Source: an uncultured Myxococcales bacterium
GTDB taxonomy: Bacteria > Myxococcota_A > Polyangia > Fen-1088
Assembly (NCBI GenBank): GCA_964540815.1
Contig: CAZIOH010000031.1
Location: 211-64,210, forward strand
Length of the DNA: 64,000 bases
Reading direction: 5' to 3'
Shown here: positions 8,674 through 16,322 of the stretch, piece after piece
Layout of the letters: each line of letters begins with the position of its first letter
Position numbering within the stretch: the stretch's first letter is position 1
The notes under the pieces: model-generated
Database searches by the model: none
Seen by the model: only the letters and a program-made list of their open reading frames with translations
What the model was told of the DNA's origin: nothing
Program-made: the position numbers and the translations under genes

Positions 8674-8770
8674 TACGAAGTGTCGTCGATCGACGAGTTC
8701 TCGTCGGGCTCCAGGCCCGGTCTGGCTGCGATCGCTGCGCGATCCGGCCCCGAGCGCGCCGTCTCCGCGG

Positions 8771-8786
8771 TGGCACGGTCTTCGCT
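8771..8786 (+). promoter_or_regulatory. candidate sigma-54 (-24/-12) promoter TGGCACG-N4-TCGC upstream of the secreted-paralog/msrPQ operon
   Basis: The sequence gTGGCACGgtctTCGCt has the GG and GC dinucleotides at the canonical 11-nt spacing, with one mismatch to TTGC. It lies about 75 bp upstream of the start at 8860 and is divergent from the bEBP gene. Confidence 0.5.
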
Positions 8787-8859
8787 GAAGCCTCGCGGGA
8801 TGCCGTGGTCTTCACTCGGAGCCACCCACCGCGATTTTCCACTTGAAAGGACCAACACC

Positions 8860-10056
8860 ATGATTCGACGCCTCGACTTCCGTAACAGACCCTTGACATT
8901 CCTGAGCTCGGCCGTCGTCGCCGGGTTCGGACTCTCCACGAATCCGCTCTACGCGGACTCGGAGGTCACGCCGGCGCCGGCCTCGATCGGGGCCGATGTG
9001 CCGGTGACGTACTTCGGCCCGGCGCCGTCTTCCGTCGAGCCCGAGTTGATCGGGCCGCACCAGTTGATCACCGCCGGTCAAGTGGATCTGGCAGCCAGCA
9101 CGGTGAAGCTTCCGCTCTACAAGGGCCGGATGAAGAACACCGGCAAGGCCGTGTGGTTCATCCTCACGGATACCAGCGACGAGGGGCAGGCCCGAGCCCT
9201 TGGGATCAACTACTCCGCGAAGCTGCAATACGCGGCGACCTGCCGGGCCGCCCGAAACGGTGACTTCGCAAACGACGGCTCGGTGATCTTCGAGGAGGGG
9301 ACCGTCGACTTCGCGCCGGTCCATGCCGTCACACCGGGCGTCGCGCCGAAGGTCTTCCCGCCCGCCGCATTTCAGGCTGGCTCGGTCGGGGATGCCGACT
9401 ACAGCCCGCTGGTTCGCCTCGCCGGGGTCGTCTACAACGCCCCCATCGTGGCGTTCGGGGTCGAGGACGCAGATCTCGATTTCTGCCAGGCCACCCCTGA
9501 CCATTCCAAGGTCCACGACAAGGTCACCGCCATCTGTCCGAGGGACAACACCGTCACCCTGCGGCTGACCAACGGCTTCAGCTTCTCTCGACCCATCGTC
9601 TACATCAGCCTGGACGCAAACGATCCGCTCGCCGCCGCGCTCGAATCGGCGACCCTGGCCCCGGCCCTGAGCGACGTCACGGTGGGGCGAGACGACAGCT
9701 TCACCAGCGGCGTCGAGCGTCTCTTTGCGGTCATCAATGGTCCCACCAATGTGACCTCGGGCGAGGTGAACCCGCAGCGGCAAGGTTTCGAGAGCGTTCT
9801 CAAGGGAGACGGGTACGGGCCGCTCAACGTCTTCGGGGGAATCCCGACCTTGGCGACCGACTACAGCCCGCTGTGGGATGTGAACCTCGGCGAGTGGACC
9901 CAAGAGGCCATCGACAACGGCTATCGCTCACGCATCACCGACGAGTTCACCTGGCTCGGAATGGCGGTGCGCGGCTTCGTGACTGGGCCGGGGGGCACGC
10001 CCTACGGCTCGAGCGGAATCATCATCAACTGTCCTCCCGTCGCACGTCTCCTTTGA
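8860..10056 (+). CDS. secreted protein of unknown function, paralog A (about 398 aa), Sec signal peptide
   Basis: Inside track ORF 8680..10056; ATG start at the MIRRLDFRNRPLTFLSSAVVAGFGLS signal peptide. Roughly 45-50% identical to the next gene across its full length. The two share conserved Cys pairs (FCQATPDHSKVHDKVTAICP) and a DYSPLWD-NLG-WT motif. Confidence 0.7.
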   Translation: MIRRLDFRNRPLTFLSSAVVAGFGLSTNPLYADSEVTPAPASIGADVPVTYFGPAPSSVEPELIGPHQLITAGQVDLAASTVKLPLYKGRMKNTGKAVWFILTDTSDEGQARALGINYSAKLQYAATCRAARNGDFANDGSVIFEEGTVDFAPVHAVTPGVAPKVFPPAAFQAGSVGDADYSPLVRLAGVVYNAPIVAFGVEDADLDFCQATPDHSKVHDKVTAICPRDNTVTLRLTNGFSFSRPIVYISLDANDPLAAALESATLAPALSDVTVGRDDSFTSGVERLFAVINGPTNVTSGEVNPQRQGFESVLKGDGYGPLNVFGGIPTLATDYSPLWDVNLGEWTQEAIDNGYRSRITDEFTWLGMAVRGFVTGPGGTPYGSSGIIINCPPVARLL

Positions 10057-10093: not shown

Positions 10094-11464
10094 ATGAAAA
10101 CCTCTGAATACGTCATTCTCGTCACTGTCCTCAACCTGATGGCGGGCGTGGGATGCAACAGCAGCAGCGGAACGGCGAGCGCTCTCAGCACCGGCGGAGG
10201 TGGCCTCGGCGGAAGCGGCGGCCAGCCGCCGGGAGCCGCGGACGCCAGCGACCTTCGAACGGGGCCGCAATGTCGCCAGGTCGGGGCCACCCGTTCTCCG
10301 CAGGTGACGACTGGCCTCGCCGACGAGATAGCTCCGGCGCCGCCTTCGATCGGCGCGGACGTCCCAGCGACCTACTTCGGGCCGAGCCCGTCCAGTGTGA
10401 ACCCCAACCTGGTGGGTCCGCTCACCTTGCTGAGGAGTGGCACGATCGATTTCGCCAAGGGCACCATCAAGCTGCCGCTCTACAAGGGCATGGTCAAATC
10501 GACGGGCCTCGCCGTTTACTACATCCTCACGGACACCAGCGACAAGGGGATTGCCGATGGGCTCGGGTTGAACTACTCGGCGAAGTTGAAGTTCGCGAAC
10601 GCCGCGGCGAGCGCGGGGGTCAACGGCTCGAATCCGGCGACCACCCTTCCCGCGCGGCAGGCGCACACGACCGCCGATCTCTCGCTGCAGTTCGACAACG
10701 GCACCGTCGACTTTGCCCCGCGGCTGGCGGTCACCCCCGGTGGGGCGCCGGACTTCTTTCCACCGTCCGCGGTGCAGCCCGGGTCGATCGGCGACAGCGA
10801 CTACACGCCGCTCGTCTACGTGCAGGATCAAGGGGTCGTGTACAACGCGCCCGTCGTCGCCTACGGTGTGACCGACGGCGATCTCAGCTTCTGTGACGGC
10901 GTCCCCGACTACGCCAAGGTGCATGACAAGGTCGCCGCCATCTGCCCGGACGACGGTACGGTGACCATTCGCCTGACGGCGGGCTTCAGCTTCGGCAAGC
11001 CCGTGTGGTATCTCAGCACGGACGCGAGCGATCCGCTCCTGGCTGCCCTCGAGCAAGCGACGTTTGCACCGGCCCTGCAGAACACCCGCGTCGGGGGCGA
11101 CGACGGCGCGTTCAGCGCGGTCGAGCGGATCTTCTCCTTCGCCAATGGTCCCACGAACGTCGGGACTGGCGACGTGGTCAACCCGCAACGACAAGGCCTG
11201 AACAGCGCGCTCAAGGGCGAAGGAGGTCCGCTCAACGTGCTCGGTGGAATTCCACACGTCGCCACCGATTACAGCCCCCTGTGGGACTTCAACCTGGGGG
11301 TCTGGACGGCCGACGCCATCGCCAAGGGCTATCGCTCTCGTGTGAACGAGGAGTTCCAGATCCTGGGGCTCGTCCAGCGCGGCTTCATCACCGGGCCAGG
11401 CGGCAAGCCGTGGGGTTCGACTGGCCTCATCGTGGACTGCCCCATCGTGCACCGCTTTCTCTAG
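10094..11464 (+). CDS. lipoprotein of unknown function, paralog B (456 aa), Gly/Ser-rich linker after the lipobox
   Basis: MKTSEYVILVTVLNLMAGVGC is a lipoprotein-type signal. Shared motifs with paralog A include LPLYKG, LTDTSD, NYSAKL, VYNAPVVA, KVHDKVAAICP and ATDYSPLWD. Confidence 0.7.
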   Translation: MKTSEYVILVTVLNLMAGVGCNSSSGTASALSTGGGGLGGSGGQPPGAADASDLRTGPQCRQVGATRSPQVTTGLADEIAPAPPSIGADVPATYFGPSPSSVNPNLVGPLTLLRSGTIDFAKGTIKLPLYKGMVKSTGLAVYYILTDTSDKGIADGLGLNYSAKLKFANAAASAGVNGSNPATTLPARQAHTTADLSLQFDNGTVDFAPRLAVTPGGAPDFFPPSAVQPGSIGDSDYTPLVYVQDQGVVYNAPVVAYGVTDGDLSFCDGVPDYAKVHDKVAAICPDDGTVTIRLTAGFSFGKPVWYLSTDASDPLLAALEQATFAPALQNTRVGGDDGAFSAVERIFSFANGPTNVGTGDVVNPQRQGLNSALKGEGGPLNVLGGIPHVATDYSPLWDFNLGVWTADAIAKGYRSRVNEEFQILGLVQRGFITGPGGKPWGSTGLIVDCPIVHRFL

Positions 11465-11475
11465 AGCACCCGTTC

Positions 11476-11517
11476 CCAACCAACCAGCCAACCGACCAAC
11501 CAACCAACCAACAACAG
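11476..11517 (+). repeat. imperfect (CCAA)n tetranucleotide tract (about 10 units) in the 5' leader of the Met-rich lipoprotein gene
   Basis: The tract ccaaccaaccagccaaccgaccaaccaaccaaccaacaacag sits directly upstream of an AAGGAG RBS and the ATG at 11542. It is an A/C-rich simple repeat in a roughly 70% GC genome. Confidence 0.6.
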
Positions 11518-11541
11518 ACCCACCCACCAAGGAGATCCCCC

Positions 11542-11928
11542 ATGAAACTCGCACTCGTCGTTCTCGCCACCATGCCGTTCAGCTTCTCCGCCTGCAAATC
11601 CTCCCCGCCCGGGGGCCCGGAGATGACACAACCGGCGATGCACGCCACCATGGCTGGCCAGGCACACGGCCCGGGCATGATGAGCGCGCCCGCCATGGCA
11701 GGGACGGGTAACACTGCGCCAGCGATGGCCGGTGGCGCCATGGCCGGTGGCTCGATCATGGCGGCACATGCCGTCGCCCCGGCGGCCGCCGTGATGGCAC
11801 ACGCGCCCGCCACGGCGCCCGCCATGGTGCCCGCCGCCATGGCACCGGCCACCACCATGGGGGCGACATCAAAGCCGACCATGAAGACGGCCGGTGGCAA
11901 GCGTCCGGTCGCCGGAACCCGACTCTAG
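11542..11928 (+). CDS. Met/Ala/His-rich small lipoprotein (MrpX-like methionine-rich peptide, or Cu-binding Met-rich protein), 128 aa
   Basis: ATG at 11542 with an AAGGAG RBS. The signal ATMPFSFSAC points to a lipoprotein. The mature part (AMHATMAGQAHGPGMMSAPAMAGTGNTAPAMAGGAMAGGSIMAAHAVAP...) has about 13% Met with MxxxM spacing and several His. It lies immediately upstream of msrP. Confidence 0.7.
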   Translation: MKLALVVLATMPFSFSACKSSPPGGPEMTQPAMHATMAGQAHGPGMMSAPAMAGTGNTAPAMAGGAMAGGSIMAAHAVAPAAAVMAHAPATAPAMVPAAMAPATTMGATSKPTMKTAGGKRPVAGTRL

Positions 11929-12191
11929 GGACCAGTCACTCGGATGCTCCACGGAATCAACATGGCCAGCGAGGTGGACGGCACGGGGATGATGACCGGC
12001 CGTTCCCTCGCGTGGGGGCGTGAGACTCCTGAGTCAGCAATGAATGCGATTCCGTCGCCGGAGACTCCGGCGGCGGAGGCCCGATCGCGCGCCGTCCAGG
12101 CCTGCGGTCGTGCTAGTGTTTCCTGCGTGGTCGACGTGACGGATCGGGAGCGGAGTCGTGGCGGCGAAGGCCGGCGACTCCGTCGAGGCTG

Positions 12192-13178
12192 ATGGCCAGT
12201 TCGGACGACATACCGCCGTCGGAGATCACACCGGCCTCGATGTACTTCAACCGGAAGACCTTCATGCGGGGGGTCGTGGCAGCTGCCAGCGTGGCCACGA
12301 CGGCGGCCGTCTACCGCCGTCTGAACGGCAAGTCCGAAGCGGCCGTCGAGGCGCCGAAGTTGGCCGGCCTGGAAGCGCCGGCCGTATCCGCCGAGGCGGC
12401 CGCGGCCGACGGCTACCGCATCGACGAAGCGATGACGCCGCTCGCTTCCGTCACGCACTACAACAACTTCTACGAGTTCACCACGGACAAGGACGGCGTG
12501 GCGGACCGGGCCAAGGACTTCTCGACCAAGGGCTGGCAGGTGACGGTCGATGGCCTGGTGGGCAAGCCCAGGGTGTTCGACCTCGCCGATCTCCTGAAGA
12601 TCAGTCCCCCCGAGGAGCGGATCTATCGAATGCGTTGCGTGGAGGCGTGGTCGATGGTGATTCCGTGGGCCGGCTTCTCGTTGTCGAAGCTCCTCGCGCG
12701 GGTGGAGCCGCTCAGCGCGGCGAAGTACGTCGCGTTCGAGACGCTGCTCGATCCAGCGCGCATGCCAGGTCAGAAGACCGGCGTGCTCGACTGGCCATAC
12801 ATCGAGGGACTTCGGATGGACGAGGCCATGCATCCCCTGACGATCCTGGCGTCGGGCTTGTACGGGCGCGAGCTGCCCGCGCAGGACGGGGCCCCGGTGC
12901 GGCTGGTGGTGCCCTGGAAGTACGGCTTCAAGGGGATCAAGTCGGTCGTGAAGATCTCCCTGGTCGCGGCGCAACCCAAGACCACCTGGAACCTCCAGGC
13001 GCCCGACGAATATGGGTTCTTCGCCAACGTCAACCCCAAGGTCGACCATCCGCGCTGGAGCCAGGCCACGGAACAGCGCATCGGTGAATCGGGCCGCCGC
13101 GCCACCCTGATGTTCAACGGCTACGGCAAGCAGGTGGCGAGCCTGTATTCGGGCATGGACCTGCGCGCGAACTTCTGA
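12192..13178 (+). CDS. msrP: protein-methionine-sulfoxide reductase catalytic subunit MsrP (YedY, molybdopterin-dependent)
   Basis: The YedY hallmark THYNNFYEF is present, with the Mo-cofactor region that follows it. A Tat-like N-terminus ([20 protein letters not shown]) is present. An alternative start is the ATG at 12240. Confidence 0.85.
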
Positions 13179-13200
13179 GCTGCGGACGCGGAGACCACAC

Positions 13201-15003
13201 ATGAAGCGCAAGCGCGACCTCCGGTTCACGAAGCTCCTGGTCGTGGTCAACGCGATCGTTCCGGGGGCGATCCTGGCCTGGGATGCAGCCCACGGACAGA
13301 TTGGTGTCAACGGCGTCAACTACGCCCTGCACACCACGGGATTGTTGGCCCTGATCTTCTTGCTGCTCACGCTCCTGGTGACGCCGCTGCGCAAGATCAC
13401 CGGGATCAACACCCTGATCTCGTACCGCCGCACGCTGGGGCTCATGGGGTTCGGCTACGCATGCGTGCATTTTCTGATCTTCTACGGGCTCGATCGCGCC
13501 GCGAGCGTCTCGAGCACGGTGCACGAGATCTTGACCAGGCGCTACCTGCTCATCGGGACCGCGGGGTTGTTGTTGATGGTGCCGCTGGCTGCCACCTCGA
13601 CGAACGCCATGCTGATGCGGCTGGGGGCAAAGCGCTGGAAGGCGCTGCACCGCCTGGTCTACCTGGTCGCGATCGCCGGCGCGCTGCACTACTACCTGCT
13701 GGTGAAGTCGGATGTTCGACAGCCGCTGGCGTTCGCCGGGGTGCTGGTGGCGCTCCTTGGCTTCCGGGTGGTGGGGTACCTCCTCGATCGGCGCAAGGCA
13801 CTCGACCCCGCGAAGCGCGCCCCCGCTTCGATGACGACGACGGCTTCGGCGACGTCGCCATCGCCGTCGCCGTCGCCGTCGGGCCCTGCCAGACCCCGCT
13901 CCTGGTCGGGGAGCCTTCGGGTGGCGAACGTGTTCGACGAGACACCCGACGTTCGCACGTTCCGTCTGATGCGCGAGGATGGGCAGCCGCTGCCGTTCGA
14001 GCACCAGCCAGGCCAGTACCTGAATCTGGCCCTCACCATAGACGGGAGGCGTGTCAATCGGTCGTACACCATCGCGTCGTCGCCCACGCGCGGGCACTCC
14101 TGCGAGGTCACGGTCAAGCGCAGCCCGAGCGGGCAGGGCTCTGTCCACCTGCACGATCAAATTCGCGTCGGTACCATGCTGAAGGTGTCGGCGCCCGCCG
14201 GCCGCTTCGTGTTCACGGGGGCAGGGTCGGATCGGGTCTTCCTCATCGCAGGCGGCGTGGGGATCACCCCCCTCATGTCCATCATTCGCTACCTGACGGA
14301 TCGCAGCTGGCCGGGCCAGATCCACCTGCTGTTCTCGTCGAAGAAGCGGGTCGATCTGATCTTCGCCGAAGAGCTCGCCTATCTGGAGCGGCGGTTCCCC
14401 AACCTCCACGTCTGTCACACGTTGTCGCGCGAGGATGGAAAAGGGGAGGTCAGCGATTGGAAGGGCGAGCGGGGCACCATCACCCGTGAACTCCTGGCGC
14501 GCGTGATGCCGGACGTGGCCCGTGGGCCGGTCTATCTGTGCGGGCCGGACGGCATGATGGCGGCGGTGCGGAAGGTGCTTCTCGAGATGGGTTTGCCCGA
14601 GGGGCTGCTGAAGACCGAGGCCTTCGTGTCTCCGCTGACCGCGGGGGCGCTGGCGCCTGCGGCCACCGGAGAGGACGCCGTCTCGGCGACCTTGGAGACT
14701 GCAGCGGCTGCCGACCCGCTGGCGACCACCCGGACGGAGGGGGCAGGGCATGTGCGCTTCCAGCGATCGGGCCAGCAGATCGAGGAGTCGCCGACCAAGA
14801 CGATCCTCGAGACCGCAGAGGACGCTGGCGTCAGCATTCCTTTTGAATGTCGTTCGGGCATCTGTGGACAGTGCAAGACCAAGTTGATCTCGGGGCGCGT
14901 GACCATGGAGACCGAGGACGCGCTCAGCGCGGCCGAGAAGGCCCGGGGATTCATCCTCGCCTGTCAGGCGCACGCCGTTGGTGACGTGACCGTCGATGCC
15001 TGA
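13201..15003 (+). CDS. msrQ: MsrQ (YedZ-like ferric-reductase transmembrane haem-b domain) fused to an FNR-type FAD/NAD(P)H oxidoreductase domain and a C-terminal 2Fe-2S ferredoxin domain
   Basis: The N-terminal 200 aa form a six-helix membrane domain with conserved His. RSYTIASSP is an RxYS FAD-binding motif and FLIAGGVGITPLMS is an NAD(P)-binding motif. The C-terminus CRSGICGQCKTK...ACQ is a plant-type 2Fe-2S ferredoxin motif. The reading frame runs 600 aa without interruption. Confidence 0.85.
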   Translation: MKRKRDLRFTKLLVVVNAIVPGAILAWDAAHGQIGVNGVNYALHTTGLLALIFLLLTLLVTPLRKITGINTLISYRRTLGLMGFGYACVHFLIFYGLDRAASVSSTVHEILTRRYLLIGTAGLLLMVPLAATSTNAMLMRLGAKRWKALHRLVYLVAIAGALHYYLLVKSDVRQPLAFAGVLVALLGFRVVGYLLDRRKALDPAKRAPASMTTTASATSPSPSPSPSGPARPRSWSGSLRVANVFDETPDVRTFRLMREDGQPLPFEHQPGQYLNLALTIDGRRVNRSYTIASSPTRGHSCEVTVKRSPSGQGSVHLHDQIRVGTMLKVSAPAGRFVFTGAGSDRVFLIAGGVGITPLMSIIRYLTDRSWPGQIHLLFSSKKRVDLIFAEELAYLERRFPNLHVCHTLSREDGKGEVSDWKGERGTITRELLARVMPDVARGPVYLCGPDGMMAAVRKVLLEMGLPEGLLKTEAFVSPLTAGALAPAATGEDAVSATLETAAAADPLATTRTEGAGHVRFQRSGQQIEESPTKTILETAEDAGVSIPFECRSGICGQCKTKLISGRVTMETEDALSAAEKARGFILACQAHAVGDVTVDA

Positions 15004-15074
15004 GCGTCTGGTGGACCCGTCGGAATGACAAAGCTCCTCGGGTGGAGAGAGTCACGTCGTCCGGCCCATTCTTG

Positions 15075-16322
15075 TCAGACAGGACACGAGCTGGCGGCTG
15101 GCTCGCCTCCGTGCGCTGCATGGGTGGAGTAGTCGGGCAGCTCGAGATCGTCGACGAGGCTGGACCCGACGGCCAATCTCGCGAGAAGCGGCGACCCCAG
15201 CACCCTCGTGGCCTGGTTCCGCATGAATATGCCGAGACCCGTTCGGGGTGCGATTGAACTGGCGAATCGGGCCGCTGCCGATTGCGTTTGAAGCATGAAC
15301 TTTCGCAGGAGCTGCTCGTATCGACTGAAGGCATCCTGCACGCTGCCGGAGCTCGAGGTAGCGCGGGCCATCTCGCCCGCCAGCACGTAAGCGCTCACGA
15401 GCGCCAGCGCGGCCCCCTGGCCGGCCATCAGGGACGGTGCAAACGCCGCGTCACCCACGAGCGCGACCCGGCCCTTCGACCACGCGTCCATGTGGATCTG
15501 GCTGACCCGATCGAAGGAGAGCGTATCCACGTCCCCGAGTGCGGCGAGAACGCGGTCACTCTCCCAGCCCGTGTTCGCAAAGCGACGGTGCAGATACGCC
15601 CGCTGCTGGTCGAGGTCCCGCGGCAGGGCCGCCACTCTGCGGCTTTCGGCCGCCAGGAGGAGGAAGCTGGTCCGATCATCGGGCATCGAATAGCGCATGA
15701 TCTGTTGCCCCGGCACTGCAAAGCCCACGCAGTCAGCCCCGTCGGCCGGGCGGTAGCCGGTACTTTCGAACGCCGCTGCCGTGTAGCCGAGGAATCGCTC
15801 GAAGCGAGACTGCGGCCCGAAGACCAGGGAACGCACCGTCGAGTGCAGCCCGTCGGCGGCGATCACGACGTCGAAGCGACGCGATGGGCTCAGGCGAAAA
15901 TGGACCAGGACGCCGTCCGCGTCCTCCTCGAGCGCGGAGATGGAGTCGCCGAAAATTGACTCCACCCGACCATCGATCGAGCTCTGGAGGATCTCGCTGA
16001 GCGCGCCTGGCGGCAAGCTGATGTAGCGTCCGTTGGTGAGGGCTTCGAATCGCTCCCCCTTGAAGCCGCCTGTGCGCCTTCCCTGGCGGTCCACCAGGCG
16101 AACCTCGCGCACGCGATACCCGGCAGCCAGGACCCTCGGCAAGAGTCCCATACGCTCGACGAGGTCGAAGCCAGGTCCCCAGAGATGGATGATGTGGCCG
16201 CTCCGGCGCGGCGCGGGCGCCTGTTCGACCATGGTCGGAACGCAACCATAGCGAAGCAACCAGTTGGCCACGGCAGGCCCCGCAATCCCGTTGCCGGAGA
16301 TGAGCACGGACTGTCCCCGCAT
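15075..16322 (-). CDS. FAD-dependent monooxygenase (salicylate/aromatic hydroxylase, UbiH-like family)
   Basis: MRGQSVLISGNGIAGPAVANWL is a GxGxxG FAD fingerprint. The C-terminal GDAAH-type motif VALVGDAAFAPSLMAGQGAALA is present. The likely start is the internal ATG at 16322; the track ORF extends to 16412. Confidence 0.8.
   Translation of the reverse strand: MRGQSVLISGNGIAGPAVANWLLRYGCVPTMVEQAPAPRRSGHIIHLWGPGFDLVERMGLLPRVLAAGYRVREVRLVDRQGRRTGGFKGERFEALTNGRYISLPPGALSEILQSSIDGRVESIFGDSISALEEDADGVLVHFRLSPSRRFDVVIAADGLHSTVRSLVFGPQSRFERFLGYTAAAFESTGYRPADGADCVGFAVPGQQIMRYSMPDDRTSFLLLAAESRRVAALPRDLDQQRAYLHRRFANTGWESDRVLAALGDVDTLSFDRVSQIHMDAWSKGRVALVGDAAFAPSLMAGQGAALALVSAYVLAGEMARATSSSGSVQDAFSRYEQLLRKFMLQTQSAAARFASSIAPRTGLGIFMRNQATRVLGSPLLARLAVGSSLVDDLELPDYSTHAAHGGEPAASSCPV

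Follow-up and report, generated by a model that had tools for sequence, protein, structure and literature searches.

The MsrPQ system of Escherichia coli pairs the periplasmic methionine sulfoxide (Met-sulfoxide) reductase MsrP with the membrane heme protein MsrQ, and its physiological electron donor is contested, with quinones set against NAD(P)H supplied through Fre, a flavin reductase that is a separate protein (Gennaris 2015, Juillan-Binard 2017, Caux 2021, and Carpentier 2025, as cited in PMC12525009). Here, we analyzed a 64,000-nucleotide stretch of an uncultured Myxococcales bacterium (assembly GCA_964540815.1, contig CAZIOH010000031.1, positions 211 to 64,210; hereafter, the window), in which msrP is followed by a gene encoding MsrQ fused to an FNR-type flavin reductase and a plant-type [2Fe-2S] ferredoxin domain. 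Sequence comparison suggests, with a probability that we put at roughly 0.8, that msrP and this 600-residue fusion form a two-gene MsrPQ system for Met-sulfoxide repair, in which MsrQ is self-sufficient and carries its own cytoplasmic electron-input module.

In the superfamily of proteins that contain a ferric reductase domain (FRD), NOX enzymes pass electrons from FAD to one heme and on to a second, and STEAP proteins pass them from NADPH to FAD and on to a heme. NOX and ferric reductases, including SpNOX, CsNOX5, NOX2, and the long forms surveyed by Zhang et al. (2013), combine in one chain an N-terminal FRD of six transmembrane (TM) helices and a C-terminal flavin- and NAD(P)H-binding dehydrogenase, and move electrons outward that originate from cytoplasmic NAD(P)H. 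YedZ/STEAP-type domains have Arg in place of the first histidine of TM3 and hold one heme, whereas two hemes and four histidines mark the NOX/FRE long forms (Zhang et al., 2013). In E. coli MsrQ, the heme is bound by H91 and H164, and the flavin mononucleotide (FMN) pocket is formed by R77, R78, L131, S135, W147, and H151 (Carpentier et al., 2025; PMC12525009); the MsrQ sequence has been described in a 2025 paper as lacking a dehydrogenase domain.

A four-domain gene recurring beside msrP

The fusion gene is complete and occupies positions 13201–15003 of the forward strand, on which all features described below are located unless stated otherwise. To assign domains, Pfam matches were judged against gathering thresholds, and NCBIfam models against equivalog cutoffs. 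The MsrQ-type ferric-reductase membrane domain with six TM helices (13201–13800; residues 1–200) matched Pfam Ferric_reduct over residues 46–160 with 60.4 bits (threshold 28). Linker 1 (13801–13905; residues 201–235), which is rich in Ala, Pro, Ser, and Thr and weakly conserved (0.12–0.33), leads to a flavin-binding beta-barrel domain (13915–14220; residues 239–340) matching FAD_binding_6 (PF00970; residues 241–337, 52.6 bits, threshold 21.1) and an NAD(P)H-binding domain (14221–14631; residues 341–477) matching NAD_binding_1 (PF00175; residues 348–458, 67.5 bits, threshold 22). Linker 2 (14632–14748; residues 478–516), a flexible tether rich in Ala, Pro, and Gly, precedes the plant-type [2Fe-2S] ferredoxin domain (14749–15000; residues 517–600), which matched Fer2 over residues 521–592 with 61.4 bits (threshold 21).

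A first-pass annotation made from the letters of the window had proposed this four-domain fusion in a single open reading frame (ORF), and the domain search agreed with it, all four Pfam domains lying above threshold. The glycine-rich NAD(P)H motif and the plant-type cysteine cluster named there were likewise found, as GGVGITP at residues 351–357 and as C550, C555, C558, and C588 with the spacing C-x4-C-x2-C-x29-C. The flavin motif is present as well, in the form of the RxY[ST] variant RSYT (R287 to T290) rather than the literal RxYS that had been given. The NAD(P)H-binding domain additionally contains CGP at residues 447–449 and two invariant columns, E473 and F475.

The fusion recurs widely. 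A scan of species-representative genomes yielded full-length relatives at 46–76% identity in approximately 50 genomes, belonging to Myxococcota (Polyangia, Kofleriaceae, Haliangiales, and Labilithrix), Planctomycetota (Isosphaeraceae, Pirellulaceae, Gemmataceae, and Planctomycetaceae), and Verrucomicrobiota, with one metagenome-assembled genome of the alphaproteobacterial family Beijerinckiaceae; the architecture is thus shared by orthologues in at least four phyla. Among the best 120 clusters at 90% identity, 118 were full-length with the same four Pfam domains, at identities down to 53%, and after clustering at 50%, approximately 20 representatives aligned end to end. The flavin, NAD, and [2Fe-2S] motifs, including GGVGITP and C-x4-C-x2-C-x29-C, were invariant across the 118 homologues. 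The fusion is real and widespread among soil bacteria, a large family and not a singular oddity.

The frame was described at first pass as uninterrupted and high in GC at third codon positions (GC3), and both properties held. The gene runs from its ATG start through 600 codons to a stop codon with no stop inside, GC3 is 0.80–0.91 for each domain with both linkers included, and the exact 600-residue protein was called on 20 contigs, each assembled independently (ENA, JGI, and NCBI). On the opposite strand, a long ORF (13114–14973) overlaps the gene, a shadow of the kind that high-GC genes usually cast. An assembly or frameshift artifact joining two genes is excluded by these 20 contigs and has next to no probability, given also the uniformly high GC3 over both junctions and the 118 homologous clusters, whose linkers are in frame and vary in length.

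The strongest support for the MsrQ-linked reading, uncited in the first-pass annotation, is the adjacency of msrP. This gene (12192–13178) encodes the periplasmic molybdopterin Met-sulfoxide reductase catalytic subunit; its product contains the Oxidored_molyb domain and matched the MsrP equivalog NF003767 with 463 bits (cutoff 207). The true start is probably at 12240 (Met17), the equivalent of which was chosen by gene callers. A spacer of 22 nt, containing a GGAG Shine-Dalgarno-like element (13190–13193) 7 nt ahead of the fusion ATG, separates the two genes. In the related loci having enough upstream sequence, msrP was located directly upstream of the fusion without exception (46 of 46), with a gap between -8 and +55 nt in 43 of the 46. 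None of the other neighbors in the window (an FAD_binding_3 monooxygenase, a trypsin-like protease, and DUF7482 proteins) recurred in 79 related loci, so that the conserved unit comprises msrP and the fusion gene.

Compared with E. coli MsrPQ and its separate Fre, the locus has the same msrP-msrQ order, an MsrQ domain and an MsrP with 37% and 54% identity to their E. coli counterparts, respectively, and the same heme and FMN-pocket residues. The only Cys of MsrP (Cys146 in E. coli) is invariant. The differences are that the reductase is covalently joined to the C-terminus of MsrQ, that a plant-type [2Fe-2S] domain absent from Fre is added, and that the fusion occurs in Myxococcota, Planctomycetota, and Verrucomicrobiota, not in enterobacteria. 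The window MsrP also carries a signal of the twin-arginine translocation (Tat) type, N-R-K-x-F. Its residues 20–21 (12249–12254) are R-K, as in the two closest relatives (L048 and L051), whereas the remaining 40 orthologues, like E. coli, show R-R at this site; by this alignment, R-K appears to be a lineage-specific variant of the normally near-invariant twin-arginine pair.

These loci also bear on the idea that the FNR-Fer2 half serves another client, such as a nearby oxygenase or cytoplasmic or membrane substrates, and that the MsrQ domain is a mere anchor. The FAD_binding_3 monooxygenase gene 72 nt downstream of the fusion, on the opposite strand, would offer such a client, and close paralogues of the module sit on unrelated N-termini. 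None of the 79 related loci contains the monooxygenase gene, on which ground a reductase dedicated to it is rejected, whereas msrP is always there; moreover, the complete conservation of heme and flavin residues described below would be left without reason in an anchor. We consider this explanation very improbable.

Databases already hold members of the family under labels of their own. In IMG, members, some of them from the same 90% cluster as the fusion protein of the window, carry a name covering both halves, 'ferredoxin-NADP reductase/DMSO/TMAO reductase YedYZ heme-binding membrane subunit', and in NCBI, 'ferric reductase-like transmembrane domain-containing protein'. A survey of FRD proteins listed, among bacterial extensions, an architecture M8 consisting of FRD and Ferredoxin/Fer2 (Zhang et al., 2013). 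The supplementary tables of that survey contain no Fer2 or PF00111 rows by which the identity of M8 with the fusion family could be confirmed. A literature search, in which few subscription journals were covered, returned no paper that ties the fusion to MsrP or characterizes it. To judge by its title, a 2004 paper by von Rozycki reportedly dealt with fusions of YedZ to electron carriers. Both the 2004 and the 2013 surveys are older than the discovery of MsrPQ function in 2015, and no link to msrP was drawn in them. A later screen for bacterial NOX demanded two His-x12/14-His motifs (Hajjar 2017), and NOX-centered screens of this kind would skip the fusion family because of that demand.

The membrane domain and the reductase module

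The membrane half was assigned to MsrQ at the level of an equivalog. Residues 5–191 matched NF003831 with 147.4 bits (cutoff 130), and alignment with the MG1655 sequence of E. coli MsrQ gave the 37% identity over the first 195 residues. The heme ligands H91 and H164 of E. coli correspond to H90 and H163 of the fusion protein, and the FMN-pocket residues R77, R78, L131, S135, W147, and H151 to R76, R77, L129, S133, W146, and H150. All eight cofactor residues were invariant in the 118 fused homologues, save H150, which is His in 115 and Gln in three. Gln is also the residue that STEAP has at this position (PMC12525009), and the exchange may represent natural variation by which the flavin site is tuned.

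Hydropathy analysis showed six TM segments, and positive charge gathers on the predicted cytoplasmic loops. The distribution of loop charges places the N-terminus, the TM2-3 loop, the TM4-5 loop, and the segment following TM6 in the cytoplasm (N-in/C-in), and the family mean net loop charge is +11.6 on the cytoplasmic side versus +0.15 on the periplasmic side. This topology places the FNR and Fer2 domains on the cytoplasmic side, a location that the proposed function demands.

With respect to NOX enzymes, the fusion protein has three of the four canonical histidines. R76 occupies the position of the NOX inner-heme histidine in TM3 (R76...H90 instead of H...H), leaving a single bis-His site, and one heme plus a flavin site, rather than two hemes, is predicted. 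According to Zhang et al. (2013), all four histidines are present in long forms, whereas the fusion family does not have them; judged by these features, its length makes the fusion protein a long form, and its signature is that of the YedZ type. Its dehydrogenase belongs to PF00970/PF00175 and not to PF08022/PF08030, Fer2 is extra, and the predicted acceptor is a protein, MsrP, in place of O2 or Fe(III). In the Pfam search for NOX-type dehydrogenase domains, PF08022 (FAD_binding_8) gave no match, and PF08030 (NAD_binding_6) reached 21.8 bits, below its threshold of 22.2. The NOX/FRE-like architecture proposed at first pass thus stood with regard to domain order and failed with regard to the type of the membrane domain, the type of the dehydrogenase, and the additional Fer2. 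From its sequence, the protein appears NOX-like in outline only, being composed of an MsrQ/STEAP-type domain and a reductase of the phthalate dioxygenase reductase (PDR) type.

These features have to be weighed against the possibility that the protein is a bacterial NOX or ferric-reductase long form that delivers electrons to O2, extracellular Fe(III), or other metals, with an incidental link to msrP. The FRD, flavin, and NAD domains do follow one another as in NOX/FRE. SpNOX was among the Foldseek matches over approximately 480 columns, albeit with differently oriented domains, NAD_binding_6 came near its threshold, and the outer heme of MsrQ-type FRDs is exposed and could serve other acceptors. 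A NOX-type two-heme enzyme is nevertheless rejected on account of Arg76 in TM3, since only one bis-His site is left and long forms are defined by four histidines (Zhang et al., 2013; Hajjar 2017). The match above the MsrQ equivalog cutoff, the adjacency of msrP in all 46 loci across phyla, and a Fer2 domain foreign to NOX likewise argue against such an enzyme, which makes this explanation improbable.

The fusion is closer to STEAP2-4, which share the FRD subtype with a single heme, an intramembrane flavin, and a conserved Arg, and which are also self-sufficient by virtue of a fused cytoplasmic NADPH domain. In STEAP, however, this domain belongs to the F420-oxidoreductase type (PF03807) and is located at the N-terminus, there is no FNR module or iron-sulfur cluster, the proteins are eukaryotic, and the acceptor is a metal ion. 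A Pfam search of the fusion protein gave no match to an N-terminal PF03807 domain of the STEAP type.

The soluble half (residues 236–600) resembles those FNR-[2Fe-2S] reductases that end in a plant-type ferredoxin. Its top NCBIfam matches missed their equivalog cutoffs (GbcB, 243.7 vs 500; PaaE, 192.4 vs 420.8; Hcr, 188.4 vs 383). The top PDB sequence matches were benzoate dioxygenase reductase, MMOR, the CYP116B reductase domain, and PDR, and the top Foldseek matches were 7ylr, PDR (2pia), and CYP116B reductases. With the PDR-like reductases (PDR 2pia, the CYP116B domain, PaaE, GbcB, and Hcr), the module shares the flavin, the NAD domain, and the C-terminal plant-type Fer2 with four Cys residues, and by this family resemblance the FNR domain probably holds its own prosthetic flavin instead of relying, like Fre, on the FMN of MsrQ. 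Unlike these reductases, it is tethered to a membrane cytochrome and does not serve a soluble oxygenase, and the linker ahead of Fer2 is long. No PDR-type partner, either an oxygenase or a hybrid-cluster gene, was conserved near the fusion, msrP being the sole conserved neighbor.

An AlphaFold2 model built with the 118 homologues as input had a mean predicted local distance difference test score (pLDDT) of 86 and a predicted template modeling score (pTM) of 0.50, with pLDDT 84–97 in the TM helices. Linker 1 fell below 50 at residues 206–226, and linker 2 scored 27–54; their lengths in the family range from 14 to 45 and from 21 to 54 residues, respectively. Linkers of such length, variability, and low confidence fit a tethered and mobile ferredoxin domain. 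The Fer2 domain is mildly acidic, with a net charge of -3 in the fusion protein and a family mean of -1.6.

Outside the MsrQ fusion, the closest relatives of the FNR-Fer2 module (45–50% identity over query residues 203–600) were seven proteins, P0145, P0146, P0148, P0153, P0155, P0161, and P0171. The N-terminus of the P0145-type proteins had no Pfam match and comprises a signal peptide, an 'EHxxHHP' motif, a Met/Gly-rich stretch (e.g., GGMGEMMEGMHG), an 'ELYPSLM' motif, a helical region, and a single TM helix, followed by an Ala/Pro linker and the cytoplasmic reductase. As a single TM helix lacking a cofactor site, this arrangement appears to offer no obvious transmembrane electron route. In two further proteins (P0190 and P0249), the module is joined to 4Fe-4S N-termini (Fer4/Fer4_5, NapH-like). 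This range of partners suggests that the FNR-Fer2 module recurs as a plug-in through which various membrane redox domains receive NAD(P)H input.

A putative electron path and its main rival

Starting from the domain identities, the conserved ligands, the topology, the linkage to msrP, and the recurrence of the fusion described above, we infer the cofactor occupancy, the order FAD, FeS, FMN, and heme, and the role of MsrP as acceptor; the nucleotide may be either NADH or NADPH, and the flavin in the FNR domain either FAD or FMN. In the proposed scheme, the flavin in the FNR-type domain (residues 239–477) would take up a hydride from NAD(P)H and would reduce the tethered C-terminal [2Fe-2S] domain by one electron each time. 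This domain would then dock on the strongly basic cytoplasmic face of MsrQ and reduce either the FMN (R76/R77/H150) or the heme directly. Electrons would traverse the membrane to the single heme b (H90/H163) close to the periplasm, and the heme would reduce the molybdenum center of the Tat-exported MsrP, resulting in Met-sulfoxide reduction in envelope proteins. The potentials known from E. coli are approximately -340 mV for the FMN and approximately -250 mV for both the heme and the molybdenum center of MsrP; because of these values, a low-potential chain fed by NAD(P)H is plausible and donation by quinol is implausible.

The main mechanistic rival is a Fre-like route, in which an FNR domain without a tightly bound flavin would reduce the MsrQ-bound FMN as a co-substrate, leaving the [2Fe-2S] cluster off the main path in a regulatory, redox-sensing, or overflow role. 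E. coli Fre has been proposed to reduce MsrQ in a comparable manner, via its FMN as a diffusing co-substrate. However, all four cysteines of the cluster, together with the motif around them, are invariant across the 118 homologues from four phyla, which argues for an essential catalytic role, and the best family matches (GbcB, PaaE, Hcr, and PDR) have a prosthetic flavin that feeds the cluster. We therefore regard the Fre-like route as unlikely, if less so than the NOX-type alternative.

Several points weigh against a self-sufficient MsrQ fed through a docking ferredoxin domain. Since the Fre mechanism needs no iron-sulfur domain, the role given here to Fer2 is drawn by analogy with PDR-type reductases. 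The structural model appears reliable for the individual domains and not for their mutual arrangement (pTM 0.50), and thus lends no support to docking. Judged by its closest relatives, which sit on other N-termini including those of single-TM proteins, the FNR-Fer2 module seems not to be intrinsically a partner of MsrQ. We lean only slightly toward the most specific form of the self-sufficient MsrQ, that of a third wiring design in the FRD superfamily. In this design, electrons would pass from NAD(P)H to FAD/FMN, a mobile [2Fe-2S] cluster, the membrane FMN, heme b, and Mo, giving a self-sufficient transmembrane wire of five cofactors.

Neighboring genes and implications for the MsrPQ electron donor

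Upstream of msrP, a candidate accessory gene (11542–11928) encodes a lipoprotein-like, Met-rich protein of 128 residues, 16 of which are Met. Its Met share is 12.4%, versus 1.7% for the neighboring proteins, it is also rich in Ala, Pro, and Gly, and its N-terminus (MKLALVVLATMPFSFSAC) looks like a lipoprotein signal. The ORF is located 263–311 nt upstream of msrP, and gene calling on an independent assembly recovered its counterpart (L081, 1342–1728). Comparable Met-rich lipoprotein ORFs flanked msrP in 7 of 35 related loci, mainly in Planctomycetota and Verrucomicrobiota (e.g., L005, 2676–2969; L014, 2198–2470; and L014, 114–995, a 294-residue ORF with 76 Met). The window product showed no sequence similarity to anything at related loci. 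MrpX, a sacrificial Met-rich periplasmic peptide, is co-expressed with yedYZ in Azospira (PMC4436054), and the window product shares the concept of this peptide, though neither its sequence nor its composition. By this analogy, it may be a periplasmic sacrificial oxidant sink and a candidate accessory to msrP.

Further upstream are two tandem paralogous genes (8680–10056 and 10094–11464; 458 and 456 residues), each with a signal- or lipoprotein-like N-terminus, the second of which matches DUF7482; they are not kept beside msrP in related loci. A promoter and terminator scan of positions 11400–15300 gave nothing exceeding shuffled expectation, and there were no paralogues of msrP, msrQ, or the FNR-Fer2 module elsewhere within the window.

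The fusion is a variant of MsrPQ that databases already recognize and that bears on the disputed donor. The fusion of an MsrQ whose heme and FMN sites are intact to an FNR-fold NAD(P)H reductase, conserved across phyla and linked to msrP throughout, supports the NAD(P)H route independently, on comparative-genomic grounds, and it adds a putative iron-sulfur relay undescribed in characterized NOX, STEAP, and MsrQ members of the superfamily. A single-chain, self-sufficient MsrQ would be directly assayable with NAD(P)H and might ease the determination of the still-missing experimental structure of MsrQ. If the five-cofactor wire holds true, the fusion would be a single-polypeptide model enzyme for the first structure and mechanism of MsrQ, and a natural 'Rosetta-stone' proof that cytoplasmic NAD(P)H, and not the quinone pool, drives MsrPQ.

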